24,000 nt of DNA from Thiomicrospira microaerophila. Lineage in GTDB: Bacteria > Pseudomonadota > Gammaproteobacteria > Thiomicrospirales > Thiomicrospiraceae. The stretch is taken from assembly GCF_000934765.1 (NCBI RefSeq), contig NZ_JYNN01000002.1:1-24000 (forward strand), given 5' to 3'. Of the stretch, positions 1,058-15,310 are shown piece by piece. The notes below the pieces were generated by a model. The model worked only from the letters and a program-made list of their open reading frames with translations, did not search any database and was not told the origin of the DNA. The translations under genes and the position numbers were made by a program. Within the stretch, counting starts at the first letter, position 1. Each line of letters opens with the position of its first letter.

Positions 1058-2470
1058 ATGGCAAATCAAACATTTAATGCCGGTGTACAGGATTACAAGT
1101 TAACCTATTGGACACCGGACTACACTCCACTTGACACAGACCTATTGGCTTGTTTTAAAGTTATTCCACAAGCTGGCGTACCTCGTGAAGAAGCCGCTGC
1201 GGCTGTTGCTGCAGAATCTTCAACGGGTACATGGACTACTGTTTGGACTGACTTGTTAACAGACATGGAGTTCTACAAAGGTCGTTGCTACAGAATTGAA
1301 GACGTACCTGGTAATAAAGACGCGTTTTATGCATTTATCGCTTACCCGCTTGACCTTTTCGAAGAAGGTTCTGTTGTTAACGTACTAACTTCATTAGTTG
1401 GTAACGTATTTGGTTTTAAAGCCGTTCGTTCTTTACGTCTTGAAGATATTCGCTTCCCTGTTGCTTACATTAAAACATGTGGTGGCCCGCCTGCTGGTAT
1501 CCAGGTTGAGCGTGATCGTTTAAATAAATACGGTCGTCCTATGCTAGGTTGTACTATCAAGCCTAAGCTAGGTTTGTCAGCTAAGAACTACGGTCGCGCT
1601 GTTTATGAGTGTTTACGTGGTGGTTTGGATTTAACCAAAGACGACGAAAACATCAACTCACAGCCTTTCCAGCGTTGGAGAGATCGTTTCTCATTTGTTG
1701 CGGATGCAATCAATAAAGCAGAAGCTGAAACGGGCGAAGTTAAAGGTCACTACCTAAACGTAACAGCGGCAACTTGTGAAGATATGATGGAGCGTGCTGA
1801 ATATGCTAAAGAGTTAGGTGTGCGTATTATTATGCATGACTTCCTAACTGGTGGTTTCTCAGCTAACACGTCATTGGCTAACTGGTGTCGTAAGAACGGT
1901 ATGTTGTTACACATTCACCGTGCAATGCACGCTGTAATTGACCGTAACCCTAACCATGGTATCCATTTCCGCGTACTAGCTAAGTGTCTACGTTTGTCAG
2001 GTGGTGATCACTTGCACACAGGTACTGTTGTAGGTAAGTTGGAAGGTGATCGTGCGTCTACTTTAGGTTTCGTTGATCAATTACGTGAAGCGTTCGTTCC
2101 AGAAGATCGTTCACGCGGTATCTTCTTTGACCAAGATTGGGGTTCAATGCCTGGTGTATTCGCCGTAGCTTCTGGTGGTATCCATGTATGGCACATGCCA
2201 GCGTTGGTTAACATCTTTGGTGATGACTCAGTGCTTCAGTTCGGTGGTGGTACGCAAGGTCACCCAGGTGGTAACGCAGCGGGTGCCGCAGCTAACCGTG
2301 TAGCCTTGGAAGCCTGTGTTAAAGCACGTAACGAAGGTCGTGAACTTGAGCGTGAAGGTGGAGACATTCTTCGTGATGCAGCGCGTCATAGCCCAGAGCT
2401 TGCAGTTGCACTAGAAACTTGGAAAGAAATTAAGTTTGAATTCGACACTGTCGATAAACTTGACGCTTAA
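1058..2470 (+). CDS. cbbL: RuBisCO form I (IA-like) large subunit
   Basis: 470 aa with hallmark motifs [25 protein letters not shown] and [18 protein letters not shown]-like AGAGG upstream; followed by cbbS and cso genes. Confidence 0.97.
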
Positions 2471-2504: not shown

Positions 2505-2849
2505 ATGTCAGTAATGGCTTCAGGTGATTTCCGCACAAAGCGCACCTATGAAACTTTTTCGTTCTTGCCACCTTTAACTCAAGACGAAATTTACGCACAA
2601 ATCGTTTACATGATTAACCAGGGTTGGGCACCTTCACTTGAGCATGATACACCTGAAAATGGTGGTGCTTACTACTGGGGTATGTGGAAGCTACCTTTCT
2701 TCGGTATGCGTGATCCTAACCTGGTTCTTGCTGAGCTTGAAGAGTGTAAACGTGCTTATCCTGATCATATGATCCGTATCGTTGGTTATGACAACTATAC
2801 TCAGTGCAAAGGTCACGAGTTTGTTGTTTACCGTCCACGTGGTCTGTAA
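2505..2849 (+). CDS. cbbS: RuBisCO small subunit
   Basis: 114 aa with [21 protein letters not shown] and [20 protein letters not shown]; lies immediately after cbbL. Confidence 0.95.
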
Positions 2850-2879: not shown

Positions 2880-5066
2880 ATGAGTGATAATACTCAAGCC
2901 TTGTCGGGTCGTGCATTATCTCGCGCGAGAAGACAAGCATTAACAAAGGGCAAAGGCGCAAAGATTGATTATGCTGCTCTTGCTCAGAGTACCTCTGCAC
3001 CTGTAAAGAGTTCGGCGCCTGCGCGGAGTGAACCTTCGTTCGCTCCGTCTAGTCCCGCAAGATCATTTGATGTCAATCCGCAGCAGGCTATTTTGTCTGC
3101 CGGTAGAAAGGCATCGATTGAGCGTCGAAAACAACAGGTAAAAGGTAATTCACGTAACAATACCCAGCCGACTCGTCAGCCTAGAAAGCCGATTGAGCCA
3201 GTTATTGAGACGACGCCTACTCAAGCCGTCGCTAACGTTGAGCGCAGTTTTGTTCCGCCTATGAGTGCGAATACAAGCCGTGCAAAAGTTAATCCTGTAA
3301 AGTCTAGTGCAACCAATCAACCTAAAGGGCGATTAATTGCGCGTTCATACAGAAAAGCGGCTTGTGAAGGTAAAGCTAAATTGCAAGCGAAAATGAGTCA
3401 AAACAGTGCATTAACTTGCATTGCAACCTCAATGGATCCAGATGCAAGCTGTCGTGATATTGCACGCCAAATTCGTGAGCAACGTGCTACACAAGGTAAG
3501 GTTAAAGCTACTTCTTCTGCGCGCCCGACAGGTCGCATGTCAAAAAAGCCCGAGAGCAACTCACCTAGTAAGGTTGGGTTTGCGATGACGTCTCACGAAC
3601 AAGAAGTAAGTGGTACTGTTTTAGCAACTACACAAAAAATGACAGGCTCGGAAGCGGGTTCATGTCGTGTAATTTCTGGAACAGAATATACCGGTCCTGA
3701 TGAATATCAAGCAAAATGTAGTTTTAAACCTGATCCATCTATACGGAAGGTTGCGATGACCTCGACTATTTCTGGCAGAACAGTGAGTGGTACTGAAGTC
3801 GGTTTATCTGAATCAGTTACGGGTACTGAGCCAGGGCAGTGTCGTCATGTAACCGGCACCGAATATATGCCTGCTGATCAAGGTGAAATTTTTTGCGGTA
3901 CAAGAGCGCCAGCGGGTGTATCTAAAGTCAGTCAATCACGCACAGCGAAGAACCAAGTGATCTCTGGTCCCTCAATGAATAAACGTGAAGACATGACAGG
4001 TATGGACGCAGGGGAGCAGCGTCATATCACGGGTAGTCAGTATGTGTTTAATAATTCACCTATTGTCAACAAGCAAACACGTGAAATGCGCAGTTCTATT
4101 ATGTCGGCACCAAGTAAGGGTGATTCAAACTCTACGGGTGCGGGTAATAATGTTTCAGGTACTAATGTAAATTTTAATGCGCCTGTTACAGGCGATGATG
4201 CTGGTTTTTGCCAAAGTTTAACTGGCGGTGAATATCAATCACAGCAAATTCGTCAAGAACGTTGCGGTGACTCACTGACGGCGGCAGTTAAGAAAAGCAT
4301 CGAATCACAAACTTTCAACGGTCAAAAAATCACCGGCGATCGTGCAGGGCTTGGTGGTAAAATCACTGGAGCAAATGCGGGTTTGTGTAAGAGTGTAACA
4401 GGCTCGTCTTATTTAAGTTTTGATGCTACGGAAGGTTGTGCTGTTAACAAGACAGCCCTTAAGCCTGATGCACAAGCAAAATCAACGCAATCCAATGTAG
4501 GTCGTCCAATGACCGGCATTCAGCCAGGTCCTTTAGGTTTAACAGGCGCTCAAAAAGGCGTGTGTCAACCCGTGAGTGGTACGGCTTATGTGGGTTCAGA
4601 TCATGCTTCTGCGTTATGTCAGGTAGGTGCGCCAGCCAGCATGGGCGATTCAGATTTTCCAGTAATGATGAATCAGCAAATGCCGATGATGGCTTTAAGC
4701 ATGCCAATGCATAATTATGGTTATGTACCCCCTTTGCAACAGCCCGAAAATATTTTGGTAGGTTCTGAGGAGTTAAGTGAAGCGGACAAGGTAGTCTCTA
4801 AAATAACCGGAGATGGTTCAGATAGTGGGCATTCCATTACTGGCGATTCTTGGGGTAGAGACGCGAAGGTCAGTGGAACAGGGGGACGTTCGGCTCAAAA
4901 ACGTAATGTTTCGATTCCTGGTAACCGTTCAGTAATGAATGCAGGCGCGAGCAGTTTTCGACCTAATGAGAACCCAAAAGTAGCAGAAATTAGTCCGATA
5001 ACCGGTTCCTCTGGTAACACTAGAAATGGTGCATCAGTAACGGTATCTGGCGGTGCTAGAGCTTAA
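2880..5066 (+). CDS. csoS2: carboxysome assembly scaffold protein CsoS2
   Basis: 728 aa, low complexity. Four basic N-terminal repeats of the RuBisCO-binding type (for example GRALSRARRQALTKGKG). Many Cys-containing [VI][ST]G repeats (VSGTE, VTGTE, ITGSQ). Ends ...VTVSGGARA. TAGGAGG RBS; canonical position after cbbS. Confidence 0.93.
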   Translation: MSDNTQALSGRALSRARRQALTKGKGAKIDYAALAQSTSAPVKSSAPARSEPSFAPSSPARSFDVNPQQAILSAGRKASIERRKQQVKGNSRNNTQPTRQPRKPIEPVIETTPTQAVANVERSFVPPMSANTSRAKVNPVKSSATNQPKGRLIARSYRKAACEGKAKLQAKMSQNSALTCIATSMDPDASCRDIARQIREQRATQGKVKATSSARPTGRMSKKPESNSPSKVGFAMTSHEQEVSGTVLATTQKMTGSEAGSCRVISGTEYTGPDEYQAKCSFKPDPSIRKVAMTSTISGRTVSGTEVGLSESVTGTEPGQCRHVTGTEYMPADQGEIFCGTRAPAGVSKVSQSRTAKNQVISGPSMNKREDMTGMDAGEQRHITGSQYVFNNSPIVNKQTREMRSSIMSAPSKGDSNSTGAGNNVSGTNVNFNAPVTGDDAGFCQSLTGGEYQSQQIRQERCGDSLTAAVKKSIESQTFNGQKITGDRAGLGGKITGANAGLCKSVTGSSYLSFDATEGCAVNKTALKPDAQAKSTQSNVGRPMTGIQPGPLGLTGAQKGVCQPVSGTAYVGSDHASALCQVGAPASMGDSDFPVMMNQQMPMMALSMPMHNYGYVPPLQQPENILVGSEELSEADKVVSKITGDGSDSGHSITGDSWGRDAKVSGTGGRSAQKRNVSIPGNRSVMNAGASSFRPNENPKVAEISPITGSSGNTRNGASVTVSGGARA

Positions 5067-6072: not shown

Positions 6073-6324
6073 ATGAAAATAATGTTGGTTGATAAAGCCA
6101 TAGTGTCAACAAATCGTATTCCAACGATGGACCATAAACCATTGTTAGTCGTTCGGGATAAGCCGGGCAGTACCCCAATGGTCGCGGTTGATGCGGTCGG
6201 TTGTAAGCCGGGAGATTGGGTTTTGTGCGTAGGCTCATCCGCCGCAAGGGACGCAACAGGTACTAAGGCTTATCCGAGTGATCTAACAATTGTTGGAATT
6301 GTTGATTATTGGGAGACCGAATAG
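6073..6324 (+). CDS. csoS4A: carboxysome pentameric vertex protein CsoS4A
   Basis: 83 aa: MKIMLVDKAIVSTNRI...AVDAVGCKPGDWVLCVGSSAARDA...DLTIVGIVD. EutN/CcmL-like fold motifs in the canonical position. Confidence 0.9.
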   Translation: MKIMLVDKAIVSTNRIPTMDHKPLLVVRDKPGSTPMVAVDAVGCKPGDWVLCVGSSAARDATGTKAYPSDLTIVGIVDYWETE

Positions 6325-6572
6325 TGGAGATTCATCAGGTAACGGGTAACTTAATTTTAACAAGTCGGCTTGATAACTTAGGTCACTTACCTGTAAAAGT
6401 TTTAAAAAGTGTATCCGGTAGTCGATTGGCTGCGGTCGATCCTATCGGATGCAAAGTTGGCGAGTGGGTATTTACCATCGCCAACTCTGCGGCTCGCACA
6501 GCTTCCGGTGATGAGAGAACCTTAACAGATTTGACCATCAGCGGAATAATCGATAACTGGGTAATGGATTAA
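6324..6572 (+). CDS. csoS4B: carboxysome pentameric vertex protein CsoS4B
   Basis: Paralogous EutN/CcmL-like sequence (AVDPIGCKVGEWVFTIANSAART...DLTISGIID). I prefer the GTG start at 6324, which overlaps the csoS4A stop as TAGTG. The ORF track's TTG at 6309 is the alternative. Confidence 0.85.
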   Translation: MEIHQVTGNLILTSRLDNLGHLPVKVLKSVSGSRLAAVDPIGCKVGEWVFTIANSAARTASGDERTLTDLTISGIIDNWVMD

Positions 6573-6709: not shown

Positions 6710-7009
6710 ATGTCAACTGAATATGGTATTGCTTTAGGTATGATTGAAACGCGTGGTTTGGTTCCGGCTATTGAAGCGGCGGACGCTATGACTAAAGCAG
6801 CTGAAGTACGTTTAGTATCTCGTGACTTCGTTGGTGGTGGTTATGTAACTGTGATGGTTCGTGGCGAAACAGGTGCGGTAAACGCAGCGGTTCGTGCGGG
6901 TGCGGATGCGTGTGAGCGTGTAGGTGATGGTCTTGTTGCTGCGCATATTATTGCACGCCCTCACAAAGAAGTTGAACCGGTTCTTAACGGTAACCTAGTT
7001 CAAGCTTAA
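6710..7009 (+). CDS. csoS1: carboxysome major shell protein CsoS1 (BMC-H hexamer)
   Basis: 99 aa: GIALGMIETRGLVPAIEAADAMTKAAEV...GDGLVAAHIIARPH, a classic BMC domain. AGGAG RBS. Confidence 0.95.
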   Translation: MSTEYGIALGMIETRGLVPAIEAADAMTKAAEVRLVSRDFVGGGYVTVMVRGETGAVNAAVRAGADACERVGDGLVAAHIIARPHKEVEPVLNGNLVQA

Positions 7010-7034
7010 TTTTAGCAATTTTGATTTTAACTCT

Positions 7035-7046
7035 GTTACGAACTCA
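7035..7046 (+). repeat. copy 3 of the 12-mer GTTACGAACTCA, in the leader of the second csoS1 gene
   Basis: Exact 12-mer, 39 nt upstream of the csoS1 ATG at 7085. The match to the reverse complement of the cbbL-leader copy extends to 14 nt (7034-7047 versus 1018-1031). Confidence 0.7.
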
Positions 7047-7084
7047 AACATTACAGCGTTTACTATCAATATGGAGATTTTAGA

Positions 7085-7393
7085 ATGGGACAAGAATACG
7101 GTATCGCGTTAGGCATGATTGAAACACGCGGTCTAGTACCCGCTATTGAAGCTGCTGACGCAATGACTAAGGCGGCTGAAGTTCGCTTAATTACGCGTGA
7201 GTTTGTGGGTGGTGGTTATGTGACCATTATGGTTCGTGGTGAGACGGGTGCGGTTAACGCAGCCGTTCGTGCCGGTGCAGATGCGTGTGAGCGCGTTGGT
7301 GACGGTCTAGTTGCTGCACATATTATTGCTCGCCCTCACAAAGAAGTTGAGCCGGTTCTAGTTGCAGGCATTAGCCCAGCTACCCGTCTATAA
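7085..7393 (+). CDS. csoS1: carboxysome major shell protein CsoS1 paralog (BMC-H)
   Basis: 102 aa, nearly identical in protein to 6710-7009 except for the termini. Many synonymous DNA differences indicate an old duplicate. Confidence 0.95.
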   Translation: MGQEYGIALGMIETRGLVPAIEAADAMTKAAEVRLITREFVGGGYVTIMVRGETGAVNAAVRAGADACERVGDGLVAAHIIARPHKEVEPVLVAGISPATRL

Positions 7394-7436: not shown

Positions 7437-7988
7437 ATGACTTATCAGAAACAAGCTAGAGCTAGTGTGATGGCCGGAGTAGGTCAGTATGCTAGACCAG
7501 AGATGCGTTCAATGGGGACAATGAATCCTCAAGTTCTTGGCTTTCTCGGGCGTGCGATGAGTCTTGAGTTTAGTGCTGCTCAGCAATATCTTGCTCATGC
7601 TGCGCTTTGTCAGAAGCGTACTGAAATGGATTTTGCAGAACAGTTTGTACAGCTTGCAAATGAAGAGTTCCGCCATGCCTCTGAATTAACAGAGCGTATG
7701 GTCGATCATGGGGCCTTGCCGTCAGGTTCAATTCTGAGTCCGGCAAAACCGGCTTTTAATATTATTGAAGCCTTATCAATTTGTGAACTCAATGAGTTGC
7801 AGTTGATTAATCTTTATGAGCAGGCTTATGGATTAAGCTCAAATCTTGGTATGGTTGCTGATGCGGAATTATTCGGTCGCTTATATGAAGAAGAAGTAGC
7901 ACAATTAAACCGTATTCGTCATTGGTCAGCTGATTATGTGGCCAGAATGCATGCGCCTCAGCCTATGACCAAAGGTTTTGCAGTATGA
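7437..7988 (+). CDS. bacterioferritin/ferritin-like protein commonly found in alpha-carboxysome loci
   Basis: 183 aa with ferritin-like helices (LEFSAAQQYLAHAA, EEFRHASELTERM). AAGGAG RBS. Its position after csoS1 matches other proteobacterial cso loci. Confidence 0.75.
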   Translation: MTYQKQARASVMAGVGQYARPEMRSMGTMNPQVLGFLGRAMSLEFSAAQQYLAHAALCQKRTEMDFAEQFVQLANEEFRHASELTERMVDHGALPSGSILSPAKPAFNIIEALSICELNELQLINLYEQAYGLSSNLGMVADAELFGRLYEEEVAQLNRIRHWSADYVARMHAPQPMTKGFAV

Positions 7989-8233
7989 GTAGCTGGAAAT
8001 TATCGAGAAACGGCTTAAGTTTGGAAGTGAAATATGTGTTTGATGGTTATAGTTCGTTAAGAGACTTTTTAGATGAGGTCGCTAATGTAACAGAGTCATT
8101 AAACATTCACCCAAACATGAGTTTTGGTCGAGATTATGCCAGTCTTATCATTTATGCAGCCGGTGAAGGCTTATCTGATGCTGAAAAAGCACTTGCTGAA
8201 AAAATTGATTTAATTTATCAACAATTTAAGTAG
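7985..8233 (+). CDS. pterin-4a-carbinolamine dehydratase-like protein (alpha-carboxysome RuBisCO assembly factor, acRAF type)
   Basis: 82 aa. ATGA start/stop overlap with the upstream gene. PCD-like core (...SLNIHPNMSFGRDYASLII...). Canonical position at the end of cso operons. Confidence 0.7.
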   Translation: MSSWKLSRNGLSLEVKYVFDGYSSLRDFLDEVANVTESLNIHPNMSFGRDYASLIIYAAGEGLSDAEKALAEKIDLIYQQFK

Positions 8234-8676: not shown

Positions 8677-10002
8677 ATGGCTACAACAGAATTAGAACAA
8701 AAAACAGAACAAAATACGAATCTGTGTGCAGGCAAATCATGCGCTGCATTTCAAAAAAAATACGTCGTACGTGACGTTCAAGCGGGTGTGATTACCGCAG
8801 CTATGGCTATACCCCTTTCGATTGGTATTGCTATCATGTCAGAGTATCCCATTCAAGTAGGTTTAGCAACGGTTGCATTTGCATCGTTTATTGGTTGGAT
8901 GTTTGCCTGGTTTAGACCCGGTAACTTTATTGGCGCACCGGGTATTGCAGCAGGTTTAGCGCCCATTCTTGCCATGGGTGTGTCGATGTTTGGCATAGGG
9001 AATATGGCTTTTATTATCTTCTTGACGGCTACTTTTCAGGCCATTATTTGGAAGTTTAATTGGCAGCGTTATATCTTGCAGCTGGTTCCGACTTATTTGG
9101 TGGAGGGGTTGCTTGCAGGTATCGGATTAAAAATTGTACTCGCCTTTTTACTTTTTACCTATGAAGTGCCCGTTGAATTTGCATCGGCGGATTCTTTTTT
9201 CACGGCTGAGCGTTGGATTGTAATTGGACTGTCTTTAGTTGGTGCCGCCTTGTTCTTATTTCTGTTTAAAAAGTTTAAGGACCGCCAACCTGCGGTGCCT
9301 TATTTTGCGCTTATTGTCTATGGGATAGTGGCTTCTTTAGTTTTACCTGTAACCATGTTGCATGTTGAAGATGCCGAGCTTGCTTTAGCTTTGCCCATAC
9401 CTGATTTTGGTACACCTGCTCTATGGGCTTATGCGATCGGCTTTGCGTTAATGCTCGCTATTATTGATGTGATTGAGCAGGTGATGAGTAATGCGGCGAT
9501 TGAGAAAATAGATCCGTTAAAGCGTAAGTGTGATAGTAATAACAGTCTACTCTCTATCTGGGTATCCAATATGGGCTCGAGTTTTTTTGGCGGGATGACC
9601 AACCTAGATGGGTTGGCTAAAAGCTCGACTAACCGTTTAGCTGGTGCGTATACTAAGTTATCTGTATTGGTGATTGCGTTAGTTATCAGCTTTTTTGTAA
9701 TCAATATTCAATACCTTGATTTTTTACCTAAATTTGCGCTTGGTATTATTATGATTTTTGTGGGTATCAAAATGATTTTGGGCTTGATGCATGTTGCCCA
9801 TCACGGGCGCTATGCATTGTTGCTAGCGGTGCTCTGTGGCTTGTTGGTTTATTGGGTAGGGATATTTGAAGGTTTACTGATTGCCTTGGCCGTGCATGCA
9901 TTTATCAACTTTGTGATCTTCAAAGAACGCGACAATATTGGTACAAATGATATGGTAAGAAACTATATTAATAAGTTTAAAGAGGAAGACGGTTTAAATT
10001 AA
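8677..10002 (+). CDS. SulP-family anion transporter lacking a STAS domain; candidate bicarbonate/DIC transporter
   Basis: 441 aa polytopic membrane protein. SulP-like N-terminal motif (RDVQAGVITAAMAIPLSIGIAIMS). No C-terminal soluble domain. Sits next to the carboxysome locus, as reported for SulP-type DIC transporters in this clade. Confidence 0.75.
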   Translation: MATTELEQKTEQNTNLCAGKSCAAFQKKYVVRDVQAGVITAAMAIPLSIGIAIMSEYPIQVGLATVAFASFIGWMFAWFRPGNFIGAPGIAAGLAPILAMGVSMFGIGNMAFIIFLTATFQAIIWKFNWQRYILQLVPTYLVEGLLAGIGLKIVLAFLLFTYEVPVEFASADSFFTAERWIVIGLSLVGAALFLFLFKKFKDRQPAVPYFALIVYGIVASLVLPVTMLHVEDAELALALPIPDFGTPALWAYAIGFALMLAIIDVIEQVMSNAAIEKIDPLKRKCDSNNSLLSIWVSNMGSSFFGGMTNLDGLAKSSTNRLAGAYTKLSVLVIALVISFFVINIQYLDFLPKFALGIIMIFVGIKMILGLMHVAHHGRYALLLAVLCGLLVYWVGIFEGLLIALAVHAFINFVIFKERDNIGTNDMVRNYINKFKEEDGLN

Positions 10003-10173: not shown

Positions 10174-11157
10174 ATGGGTTTAGATGCAATATTAATACCG
10201 GCTATATTGTTTTTTGCCTTGGGCGTGTTCGCTAAGGTCATTAAATCGGACTTAAAATTTCCCGAAGGTTTATCTAAGGGTTTATCGCTTTATCTTTTAA
10301 TTGCTATAGGTTTAAAAGGTGGTGCGGAGTTAGCCAATGCCGAATTAGGTCTGGCGATAAAATCTATTATGTGGGCCATCGTGCTGGGCTTCCTAACGCC
10401 GATTATCGGCTATATGATTTTGCGTTTCCGTGACAAGATTGACAGAATGAATGCGGCGGCCATTACCGCGCACTATGGTTCAGTGAGTGCAGGTACGTTT
10501 CTTACTGCGATTGCCTTTTTAGATGTTAGTGGCATTGAGTATGAGACCTACCCGATCATTATGATGGTGGTGATGGAAACCCCAGCTATTATTATCGGTT
10601 TGCTATTAGCGGCGCTTGCTCGAAAGCAATTGCAGCAGCAAGAGGCGGGTGAAACGGTAGCGACGCCTTGGAAATCGTTATTACACGAAGCCTTAACAAA
10701 TGGTAGTGTGGTGCTTTTGATTGGTGCGATGGTGATTGGTGCTATCTCAAGCCCTGAGGCGATGGAGAAAGTGTATCCTTTTTCACATGAAATTTTTATG
10801 GGCGTTCTATGTCTGTTCTTGCTTGATTTGGGTATGGAAGCGGCACGTCGAATGAAGGCTTTTAAAGAGGTCGGTGTCACACTGGTTGCTTTTGGTATCA
10901 TTATGCCGTTAATCGGTGGCACCATTGGTATGGTTGTAGCCGCTAGCTTCCTCGGCTTTGGTGTCGGTGGTACGCTATTGGTCGCAATACTGGGCGCGAG
11001 TGCCTCTTATATTGCTGTGCCACCTGCCATGCGCATGGGTGTGCCTGAAGCGAATCCTTCGTACTACCTGACTTTGGCGTTAGGCGTCACGTTTCCATTT
11101 AACGTGTTAGTCGGCATTCCGTTGTTTTATAACTTATCAATTTGGTATATAGGCTAA
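10174..11157 (+). CDS. sbtA: SbtA-family sodium-dependent bicarbonate transporter
   Basis: 327 aa membrane protein with SbtA-like motifs (IGLKGGAEL, HYGSVSAGTF, ASASYIAVPPAMRMGVPEANPS). Followed by a PII-like gene, as in sbtAB. Confidence 0.85.
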   Translation: MGLDAILIPAILFFALGVFAKVIKSDLKFPEGLSKGLSLYLLIAIGLKGGAELANAELGLAIKSIMWAIVLGFLTPIIGYMILRFRDKIDRMNAAAITAHYGSVSAGTFLTAIAFLDVSGIEYETYPIIMMVVMETPAIIIGLLLAALARKQLQQQEAGETVATPWKSLLHEALTNGSVVLLIGAMVIGAISSPEAMEKVYPFSHEIFMGVLCLFLLDLGMEAARRMKAFKEVGVTLVAFGIIMPLIGGTIGMVVAASFLGFGVGGTLLVAILGASASYIAVPPAMRMGVPEANPSYYLTLALGVTFPFNVLVGIPLFYNLSIWYIG

Positions 11158-11170
11158 AGGGAGGGGGACC

Positions 11171-11482
11171 ATGAGTTGCGAACAGAGATTAATTCAGATT
11201 ATTACATCGAATATCTTAGAAAACCGGGTCAAGAAGTTGTTTAAAAAGCTAGGTATTAAATCGTTTACTAGTTTTGGTGTGAACGGTGAGGGTGATACCG
11301 GGCTTCAATCTGGGCATTTTGATGCCGATAGCAATGTACTTTTTATGTTATTGCTTTCGGAAGAGAAGATGCTTGAATTGGTCGAAGAGTTAAACAAAGA
11401 TATTCAAAAGGGTTATCATCACTTTGTGTTTAGTTTGAATGCACAAATGCATACACCTTATAAATGTAAATCTGAAGTTTAA
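11171..11482 (+). CDS. sbtB: PII-like signalling protein SbtB
   Basis: 103 aa of beta-alpha-beta PII-like length and pattern (LIQIITSNILENRVKKLFKKLGIKSFTSFGVNGEG), 13 nt downstream of sbtA. Confidence 0.75.
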   Translation: MSCEQRLIQIITSNILENRVKKLFKKLGIKSFTSFGVNGEGDTGLQSGHFDADSNVLFMLLLSEEKMLELVEELNKDIQKGYHHFVFSLNAQMHTPYKCKSEV

Positions 11483-11497: not shown

Positions 11498-12451
11498 ATG
11501 AAGGACGATAAAAAAAACTTATCCAATTATCTTGTCAGGCATCTTACCTTACGACAAATTCAAGTGTTTGAGGCTGTAGCACGTTATCAAAGCTTTACCA
11601 AAGCCGCGGACGCTTTACATCTAACGCAACCGACAGTGTCTACTCAAATCAAAAGTTTTCAAGAGTCTTTAGGTGTAGCGCTTTATGAGCAAATTGGGCG
11701 CAACATTTTTTTAACCGAAGTGGGTGAGCAAGTTGCACTTGCTTGTCGTGAAATGTTAAGTAACCTGTCCAATCTTGAAATTAAGTTAAATGATTTTAAA
11801 GGGAAGCGAAAAGGTCGATTAAGAATTACCGCAGTCACCAGTGCGAAGTATTTTTTACCTTTGGCATTGGGTGAGTTTGTGAAGAGTTATCCAGAGATTG
11901 AGCTTGAATTTACGGTCTGTAATCGTGATAGTTTATTGAAGCGGATTGAGGAGAATCTGGATGATCTGTACATTATGGGGCAAAAGCCGCCTAGCAACTT
12001 GGATGTGGTTGATATTCCTTTTACCCCTAACCCTTTGGTATTGATTGCGCATCAAGATCATCCTTTTGTAGGGCGACGTGCGATTCCTTTATCAGAGATT
12101 GCCAAAGAGCCTATCTTGATGCGTGAAATTGGTTCCGGAACACGCTCTGCGGTAGAGGATAAGTTTCATCAAGCGGGCTTAAAATTAAATGTACGCTTAA
12201 CATTGGAAAGCACTGAAACCATTAAACAGGCCGTGTTTGCGCATTTGGGTATTGCTGTTGTGCCCATGCATGCGGTGTATTTGGATGGGGCGAAAGGGCC
12301 GATATCGATTTTGGATGTAGAAGGTTTTCCACTTGAAAAAGAGTTGAATATTGTGTATCCAACGGGAAAATCCTTGTCGATTATCGCCAGAGCATTTTTA
12401 GATTTGTTGCAACAAAAAGGTGCTCAGTATTTTCAGCTCCCTCGCGCTTGA
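11498..12451 (+). CDS. LysR-family transcriptional regulator, CbbR/CcmR-like
   Basis: 317 aa. N-terminal HTH LTLRQIQVFEAVARYQSFTKAADALHLTQPTVSTQIKSFQESLG, typical of CbbR-type regulators. Lies among CCM genes. Confidence 0.88.
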   Translation: MKDDKKNLSNYLVRHLTLRQIQVFEAVARYQSFTKAADALHLTQPTVSTQIKSFQESLGVALYEQIGRNIFLTEVGEQVALACREMLSNLSNLEIKLNDFKGKRKGRLRITAVTSAKYFLPLALGEFVKSYPEIELEFTVCNRDSLLKRIEENLDDLYIMGQKPPSNLDVVDIPFTPNPLVLIAHQDHPFVGRRAIPLSEIAKEPILMREIGSGTRSAVEDKFHQAGLKLNVRLTLESTETIKQAVFAHLGIAVVPMHAVYLDGAKGPISILDVEGFPLEKELNIVYPTGKSLSIIARAFLDLLQQKGAQYFQLPRA

Positions 12452-12538
12452 ATATTTATAGTTTAATGCTTGAATATCTTGAATGTGATAGACTGAAAAC
12501 GAGTAAAATAAGCAAATAGTTTGTATAAGGAAAGCTGA

Positions 12539-13081
12539 ATGAGAAATCAATCTATTAATATTACCGGCACAGCGGGTATTGAGTCTTCTAGACAAAGTCG
12601 TGTGAGCTTAAATAGTGCATTACGCAATCCATCTGAAGCCGTAACAGGCGTGTCAAGACGTCCTATTGATACCGTGGTAGCCGTTGAACAAAGTTTTTGC
12701 GCGCCTATGGATGAAAAATTGGCAACGGAATTGTTCAAAAAATGGAATGAAGCGTTGCAAACGGGTAATCCTAAAGCCGTGGCGGCGCTTTATTCTGAGG
12801 ACGCGGTATTGTTACCAACTGTATCAAATTTAGCGCGCACTAATTTAGCTGAAATAGAAGATTATTTCGCTCACTTTTTAGAAAAGAAGCCGTATGGCAC
12901 TATTATTCAGCGAAATGTCAAAAAAGGTTGCAATAAGTTAACGGATGCAGGTATTTATTCATTCCGTTTGACAGATCATACCGGCACAAAAGATGTCGCC
13001 GCACGCTACACTTTTGTGTATGAGCATCGCAACGGTGGTTGGAAGATTGCCCATCATCATTCATCGGTTATGCCAGAGTAA
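12539..13081 (+). CDS. iota-class carbonic-anhydrase-like protein (CaMKII-association/SgcJ-EcaC fold) with a roughly 56-aa disordered N-terminal extension
   Basis: The C-terminal ~124 aa read W..AL..GNP.AVAALYSEDAVLLPTVSN...YF..FL..KP.G...ARYTFVY...GGWKIAHHHSSVMP, ending in the HHHSS signature reported for iota-CAs. AAGGAAAG RBS before the ATG at 12539. The N-terminus is S/R/N/T-rich with no hydrophobic signal peptide. Confidence 0.72.
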   Translation: MRNQSINITGTAGIESSRQSRVSLNSALRNPSEAVTGVSRRPIDTVVAVEQSFCAPMDEKLATELFKKWNEALQTGNPKAVAALYSEDAVLLPTVSNLARTNLAEIEDYFAHFLEKKPYGTIIQRNVKKGCNKLTDAGIYSFRLTDHTGTKDVAARYTFVYEHRNGGWKIAHHHSSVMPE

Positions 13082-13735: not shown

Positions 13736-14350
13736 ATGATTAAACTTCGAACCTACATTTTTATTAACTCTTTGCAGCCACAAATTGCATCTTATATGGG
13801 AACGGCGGCGCAGGGTTTCTTACCTGTCCCAGGTGATGCCTGTTTATGGATGGAGGTCGCGCCTGGTATGGCGGTTCATCGCTTGACAGATATTGCGTTG
13901 AAAGGCTCTAATGTGCATTTAGGTCAACAGGTCGTTGAGCGTGCATACGGTTCGATGGTGATTCATCATCGTGATCAGAGTGATGTACTCGAGAGCGGTG
14001 AAAAAGTATTAGATTATTTAAACACAGAAGAGTGTTCTCGTCAGAAATGTCATATTATGTGGAATGAGATTATTCGTTCTATTATGCCGGATCATGCCGT
14101 ATTGATTAACCGAGACAATCGCCGTGGTTCGATGATCCTTCCTGGGCAGAGCATGTATATTATGGAAACGGAGCCAGCGGGCTATATTGTGTATGCGGCT
14201 AATGAGGCGGAAAAAGCGGCGAATATTACTTTAATTGAAGCACGTGCTGTGGGGGCTTATGGGCGCCTGATATTAGCGGGAAATGAGGCGGATATTAATA
14301 CAGCGGCTGAAGCCGCCACAAAAGCGATTCAAAATCTGAGTGGCGTTTAA
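13736..14350 (+). CDS. csoS1D: tandem-BMC (pseudohexameric) carboxysome shell protein CsoS1D
   Basis: 204 aa. [50 protein letters not shown]...[16 protein letters not shown]...[25 protein letters not shown] closely resembles the CsoS1D sequences I remember. Confidence 0.85.
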
Positions 14351-14427: not shown

Positions 14428-14688
14428 TTAATCAGGCCAAACTCGACGTGCGGGCAGTATTTTGGGCTTGTCTTCTGTAGGCTTAGTGTCAGTCGCTTTT
14501 TCAACTGGCTTGGCGACTGGCTTTTTAGCCGGTGCGGGTTTTGCTGTAGCCGCAGGCTTTGTTTCTTCTGTTGCTGTTGTGCTGGTGTCGGTTGTATCGT
14601 TCATCTTACTGGTTGTCTCCGTTGTTGTTTGTGCGTTGTTTGCAGTGGCCTTGGCGGCAGTGGTTCTTGGTTTGCGTCTAGTGACCAT
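14428..14688 (-). CDS. mcdB: intrinsically disordered K/T/A/P-rich protein, McdB-like carboxysome positioning adaptor
   Basis: 86 aa of low complexity (TTETTSK..., AKPAPAKKPVAKPVEK) with a C-terminal ...RRVWPD tryptophan. Overlaps the stop of the upstream ParA-like gene by 11 nt. Adjacent to csoS1D. Confidence 0.62.
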   Translation of the reverse strand: MVTRRKPRTTAAKATANNAQTTTETTSKMNDTTDTSTTATEETKPAATAKPAPAKKPVAKPVEKATDTKPTEDKPKILPARRVWPD

Positions 14689-15310
14689 GGATTTCCTCCC
14701 ATAATTGTTGAATTTCTTCAGTTGCTTTTGTGTTGTTCATTTCGACGACGCCATAACCTAAGCTGATGGCATCACGATAAACTTTACGATCTCGAATAAT
14801 CGTGTTTAGCAGATGAATATCTTGATAATCTTTTAGGTATTCTTTAGCTTCTTCCACTTCTTTTACCGAGGTGTTAGTTGGTGCGAGGGTGAGTGCCGCT
14901 CTTACTTTGAGTTTTGAGTTGTAGTCCTTGCTTAGCGTGATAATTTCTTGCAAGCTTGGTAAAACATCGAGATCTGGCTGTGAAGGTCGAAATGGAATCA
15001 ATAACACATTCGCGGCTGTCATGCCGGTACGCAACTCTCGAGAGTCGCGGCCACCGGCATCGACGATCACATATTCATAGCGTTTGCCCAAATCCAGAAG
15101 TGTGTCACGAATGTTGTCAAAGGCTTGAACGTGATTAACTTTGGGTTTGTCTGTTTCGATGCGGTCCAGTGCCCAGTTGGATGAGGTGGCTTGACGATCG
15201 GCATCGACAATAATCACGTCTTTTCCTTGGGTGACCAGCAAGGCAGCAAGGTTAGTGGTGAGTGTGCTTTTTCCGCAACCGCCTTTAATGTTGGCTATTT
15301 GTATAATCAT
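14678..15310 (-). CDS. mcdA: ParA/MinD-family ATPase, McdA-like (maintenance of carboxysome distribution)
   Basis: 210 aa with a deviant Walker A (ANIKGGCGKST), VDADRQ and VIVDAGG. No parB or partition site nearby. Paired with a disordered partner next to carboxysome genes. Confidence 0.75.
   Translation of the reverse strand: MIIQIANIKGGCGKSTLTTNLAALLVTQGKDVIIVDADRQATSSNWALDRIETDKPKVNHVQAFDNIRDTLLDLGKRYEYVIVDAGGRDSRELRTGMTAANVLLIPFRPSQPDLDVLPSLQEIITLSKDYNSKLKVRAALTLAPTNTSVKEVEEAKEYLKDYQDIHLLNTIIRDRKVYRDAISLGYGVVEMNNTKATEEIQQLWEEIHGH

Follow-up and report, generated by a model that had tools for sequence, protein, structure and literature searches.

An iota-class carbonic anhydrase with a disordered N-terminal extension, a candidate encapsulation signal, in the carboxysome locus of Thiomicrospira microaerophila

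An alpha-carboxysome locus carrying an iota-carbonic anhydrase gene

The stretch analysed here (the window, 24,000 nucleotides (nt) of Thiomicrospira microaerophila contig NZ_JYNN01000002.1) is an alpha-carboxysome locus according to its open reading frame (ORF) list and its Pfam and NCBIfam matches, and our subject is the iota-class carbonic anhydrase (iota-CA) encoded within it (Table 1). An exact-sequence look-up matched the product of this ORF to WP_044406680.1 of T. microaerophila. The iota-CA gene lies between the lysR gene of the locus and the ham1–csoS1D genes, and the slot usual for csoSCA, the gene for the beta-class carbonic anhydrase (CA) of alpha-carboxysomes, holds no catalytic csoSCA. 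A promoter and terminator scan, which returned fewer matches than shuffled sequences did, placed no plus-strand terminator between the iota-CA gene, ham1 and csoS1D, and the three genes are probably co-transcribed. The synteny of the complete locus is common to three metagenomic or metagenome-assembled genome (MAG) relatives.

Table 1. Features of the T. microaerophila carboxysome locus, in window positions
Feature	Position	Strand	Basis or remark
cbbL	1058-2470		
cbbS	2505-2849		
csoS2, CsoS2 scaffold gene	2880-5066	+	Pfam CsoS2_M, E=1e-92
NVERSFVPPM, linker segment in CsoS2	3234-3263	+	
CsoSX gene, degenerate CsoSCA remnant in the csoSCA slot, 314 aa	5093-6037	+	NCBIfam shell_carb_anhy, E=0.0032
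csoS4A/B	6073-6572		
Two csoS1 genes	6710-7393		
Ferritin-like gene	7437-7988		
Pterin-dehydratase-like gene	7985-8233		
SulP transporter gene	8677-10002		
SbtA transporter gene	10174-11157		
PII-like gene	11171-11482		
LysR regulator gene	11498-12451		
Shine-Dalgarno-like AAGGAAAG, 7 nt 5' of the ATG	12527-12534	+	Read from the sequence
iota-CA gene, 180 aa	12539-13081	+	ORF list, exact look-up, Pfam CaMKII_AD
Disordered N-terminal extension, aa 1-53	12539-12697	+	pLDDT 42-58, conservation, pN/pS
Motif 1, ITGTAGI, aa 8-14	12560-12580	+	Pattern [IV][ST]G[TS]x[GF][IL], 44/44 loci
Motif 2, RVSLNSALR, aa 21-29	12599-12625	+	Pattern [ILVF]S[LFVYM][SG]xxxR; S23 and R29 at least 90%
Motif 3, VTG, aa 35-37	12641-12649	+	Second [IV][TS]G triplet
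Motif 4, PIDT, aa 42-45	12662-12673	+	Pattern [PA][IV]D[TVS]; D44 invariant
AVEQSFCAPM, aa 48-57	12680-12709	+	C54 and P56 at the N-terminal edge of the catalytic domain
iota-CA catalytic domain (NTF2-like cone), aa 58-180	12710-13078	+	3h51 similarity, conserved residues
Ham1/RdgB-like gene, from 3 nt past the iota-CA stop codon	13085-13713 (start approximate)	+	Pfam Ham1p_like in syntenic loci
csoS1D, CsoS1D-type tandem-BMC shell protein gene	13736-14350	+	Pfam BMC; NCBIfam CcmP-like, E=2.6e-71; conserved synteny

As an earlier sequence-only reading of this DNA had it, the protein has an iota-CA-like domain ending in HHHSS: Pfam CaMKII_AD (PF08332) matches residues 64–179 (E=1.5e-21), and HHHSS (residues 172–176; 13052-13066) stands in the C-terminus HHHSSVMPE. 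The nearest solved structure is PDB 3h51 from Xanthomonas (phmmer E=1.4e-35; Foldseek TM score 0.84, 53% identity), a protein treated as an iota-CA in a review (PMC8425729). LLPTVSN, R100, Y109, Y140, R156, Y157 and H173–S176 are invariant in the secreted and the extension-bearing clades of iota-CAs, and all of them are present here. An AlphaFold2 model built with 67 homologues was confident over residues 59–177, with a predicted local distance difference test score (pLDDT) of 80–97 in the domain, while residues 1–50 scored only 42–58. The RefSeq name of the protein, "SgcJ/EcaC family oxidoreductase", comes from NCBIfam TIGR02246 (E=1e-16); it is misleading and masks the carbonic anhydrase identity across the whole clade. 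For the COG4337 subclass of the iota class, metal-free catalysis has been reported.

That an iota-CA takes the place of CsoSCA in Thiomicrospira carboxysomes was already published in 2024 (Wieschollek et al., Appl Environ Microbiol 90:e0107524). In PMC12628692, which cites Wieschollek et al. 2024, it is said of the genus Thiomicrospira that "Their carboxysomes carry iotaCA instead of CsoSCA", and PMC12646314 makes the same statement. The former also lists for T. pelophila an "Iota-type carboxysomal CA", csoSX and carboxysome-adjacent sulP and sbtA genes, and this list agrees with the layout of the T. microaerophila locus. The carboxysomal role of the iota-CA rests, as described there, on experiments in sister species (PMC12628692, PMC12646314). 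The substitution of an iota-CA for CsoSCA, which the sequence-only reading had proposed, is therefore borne out for the genus by these sources and hence is not new.

The T. microaerophila locus is a sister-species instance of this known system. Its protein belongs to the same genus as the carboxysomal iota-CAs of T. pelophila and T. aerophila, and the gene order, cbbLS-csoS2-csoSX-csoS4AB-csoS1-...-sulP-sbtA-PII-lysR-iotaCA-ham1-csoS1D, is the same; what differs is the species, the T. microaerophila enzyme being known from its sequence alone. The orthologue of T. aerophila AL3 (WP_006460174.1) is 64% identical over its full length (180/182 aa), extension included, and falls into the same clade of the tree. 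Based on these comparisons, the protein is very probably an iota-CA orthologous to the published carboxysomal enzyme.

A translated extension in place of a signal peptide

The N-terminus has no hydrophobic signal-peptide core, and an AAGGA ribosome-binding site stands 7 nt ahead of the Met1 ATG, both as claimed from the sequence alone. The extension proper comprises residues 1 to about 50, is disordered and occupies the site of the signal peptide of periplasmic relatives. Orthologues of 180–188 residues cover the entire query and align throughout the N-terminal region. In a homologue scan with one genome per species we obtained 80 loci, 44 with the extension and 36 without it, and the extension is conserved in these 44 genome loci and in 65 database proteins. 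Its hosts are Thiomicrospira, Hydrogenovibrio, Thiomicrorhabdus, Thiosulfatimonas and Halothiobacillus-like MAGs, together with many Thioalkalivibrio, Guyparkeria, Methylonatrum, Thioalkalicoccus and Ectothiorhodospiraceae. In the 36 extension-less loci the match begins only at about residue 45–65. The N-termini of these proteins are typical Sec signal peptides, and the conserved Cys after them corresponds to C54 in the alignment.

An in-frame ATG at 12707 raises the possibility that translation starts at Met57 and yields a bare cytoplasmic iota-CA domain with the upstream codons unexpressed. However, Met57 is not conserved, the position being V or A in nearly all orthologues, and nothing resembling a Shine-Dalgarno sequence precedes it, in contrast to the AAGGA ahead of Met1. 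In pairwise comparisons with three relatives, moreover, codons 2–53 showed non-synonymous differences (pN) of 0.16–0.32, far below the synonymous ones (pS, 0.65–0.94), which indicates that the extension codons are translated and under purifying selection. Together with peptide motifs of the extension that are conserved across families, these observations leave a start at Met57 extremely improbable. Non-synonymous change in the extension is nevertheless 3–4 times faster than in the domain, where pN is 0.05–0.12.

In a neighbour-joining tree built on the domain, one split (bootstrap 40/50) sets the extension-bearing proteins apart. Judged by this tree and by the N-termini of the 80 loci, the extension, with high confidence, replaces the signal peptide and marks one carboxysome-linked clade of iota-CAs. 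The comparison shows that the enzyme originated from periplasmic iota-CAs, the Sec signal peptide being swapped for a disordered extension of about 50 residues, so that it stays in the cytoplasm. Periplasmic iota-CAs such as BteCA-iota of Burkholderia territorii and the 3H51 protein of Xanthomonas campestris, as well as diatom LCIP63, have in common with the T. microaerophila protein the CaMKII-AD/NTF2-like domain, HHHSS, LLPTVSN and the C54/C131 pair; they differ from it in carrying signal or transit peptides and in acting outside the cytoplasm, whereas the T. microaerophila protein has a disordered extension and is encoded in a carboxysome locus. In Thioalkalivibrio thiocyanoxidans (L027), an iota-CA paralogue with a signal peptide (10708-11091) lies directly downstream of the extension-bearing copy.

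Two other readings of the N-terminal region were rejected. A Tat signal at SRRPID is contradicted by the lack of conservation of RR and of any hydrophobic stretch after it, and C54 is neither an extension-specific Cys nor a lipobox relic, as C54 and C131 are conserved in secreted and extension-bearing iota-CAs alike. Should C54 (12698-12700) and C131 (12929-12931) be linked by a disulfide that dates back to the periplasmic ancestor, the activity of the enzyme might follow the redox state of the carboxysome interior.

Association with carboxysome genes and states of CsoSCA

We examined the surroundings of the 80 loci for carboxysome (cso) genes. With flanks of 10 kb considered, 22 of the 44 extension loci have such genes nearby, against 0 of the 36 extension-less loci (Fisher p=8.7e-8); for several of the other extension loci, the flanking sequence is very short. 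In L003, L010, L013 and L024 (Thiosulfatimonas, Thiomicrorhabdus and Hydrogenovibrio), the extension-bearing iota-CA gene adjoins a gene for a SulP-type or SbtA-type transporter of dissolved inorganic carbon (DIC), not shell genes; copies in this setting could have another cytoplasmic role.

The sequence-only reading had found no recognisable csoSCA in the operon. A catalytic csoSCA is indeed missing, but the slot is filled by the degenerate remnant CsoSX, whose NCBIfam match covers model positions 17–97, that is, the N-terminal part only, and which lacks the catalytic domain; CsoSX gave no Pfam match. Consistently, all Thiomicrospira, T. microaerophila by name among them, have been reported to lack csoSCA and to carry after csoS2 a degraded gene whose product still aligns with CsoSCA at its N-terminus (PMC9164163). 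In this genus the CsoSX remnant stands alone and is 250–330 residues long. The N-terminal RAPSGRVITN of CsoSX is kept as RAPNGRVITN in Thiomicrospira sp. ALE5.

Other lineages presented CsoSCA in different states. Twelve cso loci (L014, L016-L018, L020, L027, L032, L034, L036, L038, L039 and L012, from Thioalkalivibrio spp., Methylonatrum kenyense and others) encode a full-length CsoSCA with C173, D175, R177, H242 and C253 all present and, some kb further downstream and past a LysR gene, an iota-CA with the extension. Three Halothiobacillus-like MAG loci (L011:2012-3607, L022:1688-3256 and L026:2240-3844), in which the extension-bearing iota-CA is likewise found, encode a full-length CsoSCA that has lost two or three zinc ligands: the five positions read A/D/R/N/C or A/D/R/N/S, with Cys173 replaced by Ala and His242 by Asn in 3/3 and Cys253 by Ser in L022, while Asp175 and Arg177 are retained. 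By its residues, the CsoSCA of these three MAGs looks catalytically dead and retained for a structural role.

The comparison that the sequence-only reading had proposed, whether orthologues in csoSCA-bearing genomes lack the extension, turned out negative, since the extension is retained in the 12 loci with intact CsoSCA. Because it is present there, the extension predates the loss of CsoSCA and is not an adaptation to that loss. The gene content of these 12 loci suggests carboxysomes with two unrelated CAs, and the states of CsoSCA beside the extension-bearing iota-CA read as a series from coexistence to replacement.

Motifs of the extension and a proposed packaging mechanism

Four short elements of the extension (Table 1) are kept across the Thiomicrospira, Thioalkalivibrio, Halothiobacillus-like and Guyparkeria lineages amid otherwise diverging extension sequence. 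In motif 1, G10 and I14 are invariant in 67 sequences. The [IV]TG triplets noticed from the sequence alone are present as ITG (residues 8–10) and VTG (residues 35–37) and proved to be conserved, exactly two [IV][ST]G triplets being found in 90/99 non-redundant extensions. By comparison, iota-CA catalytic domains contained 1 triplet in 9821 residues, and 14 of the other 17 window proteins examined contained none, the remaining three being CsoS2 (19 of the form [VI][ST]G), CsoS4B (3) and SbtA (1). With Met also admitted at the first position ([VIM][ST]G), CsoS2 of the window has 22 triplets, spaced 11 residues apart. Thiomicrospira sp. ALE5 encodes after csoS1D a second extension-bearing paralogue (L001:11933-12475), in which motifs 1 and 2 are kept and the second [IV]TG triplet is gone.

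For CsoS2 it has been reported that the [IV]TG motif makes contact with the CsoS1A His79 strand, that CsoS2 loses its effect on shell assembly when the motif is mutated to AAA, and that the triplets are spaced by about 8 residues (Ni et al. 2023, PMC10484944). Like these shell-binding repeats, the extension has conserved [IV][ST]G triplets, in many cases with T as the next residue, within a disordered segment; it differs in having two triplets only, 27–28 residues apart rather than 8–11, and in showing no detectable homology, and the binding of CsoS1 by the extension is a prediction only. The earlier description of the extension as CsoS2-like thus stands in part: it is a clade-specific disordered segment with [IV][ST]G triplets, but at the profile level it does not resemble CsoS2, and its triplets are spaced differently.

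Inside the alpha-carboxysome, the iota-CA would turn imported bicarbonate into CO2 for RuBisCO and so do the job of CsoSCA, a role established by experiments in sister species. We propose that the extension would serve as its encapsulation signal through conserved short linear motifs, namely the two [IV][ST]G triplets together with PIDT and the [ILV]S[LFV]...R element. Binding would most likely take place during shell assembly, with the triplets docking, as those of CsoS2 do, on the side of the CsoS1 hexamers that faces the shell interior. Taken whole, with a carboxysomal iota-CA of periplasmic descent and an extension that packages it by triplet docking on the shell, we give this explanation a probability of roughly 0.6. 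Its parts differ in strength. That the extension is an encapsulation signal is slightly more likely than not, whereas CsoS2-like docking on CsoS1, argued by analogy, is no better than a tentative suggestion. Equally tentative is the more specific proposal that the extension may be a natural alpha-carboxysome encapsulation peptide, acquired once, that mimics the shell-binding motif of CsoS2.

Several observations weigh against this explanation. Thiomicrorhabdus-type sequences have VTQ in place of the second triplet, a triplet also lost from L025, L035 and the L001 paralogue, and the spacing of 27–28 residues compares with 11 in the CsoS2 of the window. When a hidden Markov model of the extension was run against 6898 ORFs of the fetched loci, CsoS2 fragments ranked just below the iota-CAs, at non-significant E values of 0.7–0.85. 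Searched against 1.84 billion representative proteins, the extension profile returned iota-CA proteins or fragments and three spurious tandem-repeat proteins, and no CsoS2. As no other cargo family appeared among these representatives, a modular peptide common to several cargo proteins was also rejected. Finally, not every extension-bearing copy is found near cso genes, some having a SulP or SbtA transporter gene as neighbour instead, and the enzyme coexists with an apparently intact CsoSCA in 12 loci.

The last two observations could also mean that the extension does not target the enzyme at all. It would then have taken the place of the signal peptide in a lineage of cytoplasmic iota-CAs and serve regulation, oligomerisation or a partnership with DIC transporters, with entry into the carboxysome mediated by the folded domain or non-specific. 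Besides the copies beside SulP or SbtA genes (L003, L010, L024) and the genomes with intact CsoSCA, the faster non-synonymous change of the extension fits this account, as does the finding that CsoSCA enters mini-shells by non-specific interactions with shell proteins (PMC12646314). A free cytoplasmic CA would, however, be expected to short-circuit a bicarbonate-accumulating CO2-concentrating mechanism (PMC10880623), the four motifs are conserved across four lineages while the rest of the extension diverges, and the association with cso loci is strong, so that we regard a non-targeting extension as unlikely.

About equally unlikely, if anything a shade more so, is recruitment by a partner other than the shell, be it RuBisCO, the CsoSX remnant or CsoS2. 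The precedent is CsoSCA, whose N-terminal peptide is both required and enough for encapsulation, with PRLDLIEQA as its RuBisCO-binding motif (PMC10614612). CsoSCA has the same physiological role as the iota-CA and likewise a disordered N-terminal region ahead of its catalytic part; it differs in its unrelated fold, its zinc dependence and its binding of RuBisCO through PRLDLIEQA, to which the extension has no conserved counterpart. Motif 2 (R[VL]S[L]...) faintly resembles that peptide in its order R-hydrophobic-polar-L, but the critical P22 of CsoSCA has no conserved counterpart ahead of motif 2. Nor does the RuBisCO-binding pattern [RK]x5[HKR]R point this way, with 0 matches in the iota-CA of the window and 1/99 in the extensions, while CsoS2 of the window matches at residues 11 and 76. 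CsoSX retains a CsoSCA-like N-terminus and could be an adaptor (PMC9164163); the same extension is found, however, in loci that have a full-length CsoSCA and no CsoSX.

A direct link to CsoS2 had been seen in AVEQSFCAPM of the iota-CA and NVERSFVPPM of CsoS2, which could be a motif copied or co-evolving between the two proteins. The match exists: 7/16 residues and 30/48 nt around it are identical, the best local alignment of extension and CsoS2 scored 45 against 33 +/- 4.9 for shuffled extensions (p=0.0245), and a weak E-x-S-[FY]-x-AP likeness is kept in both proteins of close relatives. The CsoS2 counterpart, however, belongs to a variable linker between RuBisCO-binding repeats: three close relatives have STERNYEASS, VQQAEFTAPA and ASERSYVAPA in its place, and in Thiomicrospira sp. 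ALE5 a deletion removes it. Within the iota-CA segment, conservation is limited to E50, C54 and P56 and does not extend to SF, and C54 and P56 recur in secreted iota-CAs and hence are domain residues; C54 in particular is assigned to the catalytic domain because secreted homologues carry it. With a p value of 0.0245 and a non-conserved linker, the match does not amount to a shared motif and is treated as chance; a functional one is most improbable.

Downstream of csoS1D, a ParA-type ATPase gene (14678-15310, minus strand) overlaps the gene downstream of it, which encodes an 86-residue protein (14428-14688, minus strand) of low complexity, with a high content of Thr, Ala, Lys and Pro and RRVWPD as its C-terminus. 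This pair (14428-15310), whose orientation is inverted relative to the relatives L081 and L083, presumably resembles the McdA/McdB pair that positions carboxysomes.

If the extension is a natural encapsulation peptide that mimics CsoS2, its spread into lineages with intact CsoSCA (Thioalkalivibrio, Methylonatrum) would imply two unrelated CAs in many alpha-carboxysomes. The intact (12 loci), ligand-deficient (L011, L022 and L026) and truncated (CsoSX of Thiomicrospira) forms of CsoSCA beside the iota-CA would then be a stepwise record of enzyme replacement. The occurrence of the iota-CA beside all three forms also gives a rare view of how one enzyme is displaced by another inside an organelle. 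For building carboxysomes in crops and for nanoreactors, it would be useful to have a short peptide of natural origin by which a foreign enzyme is loaded into alpha-carboxysomes.

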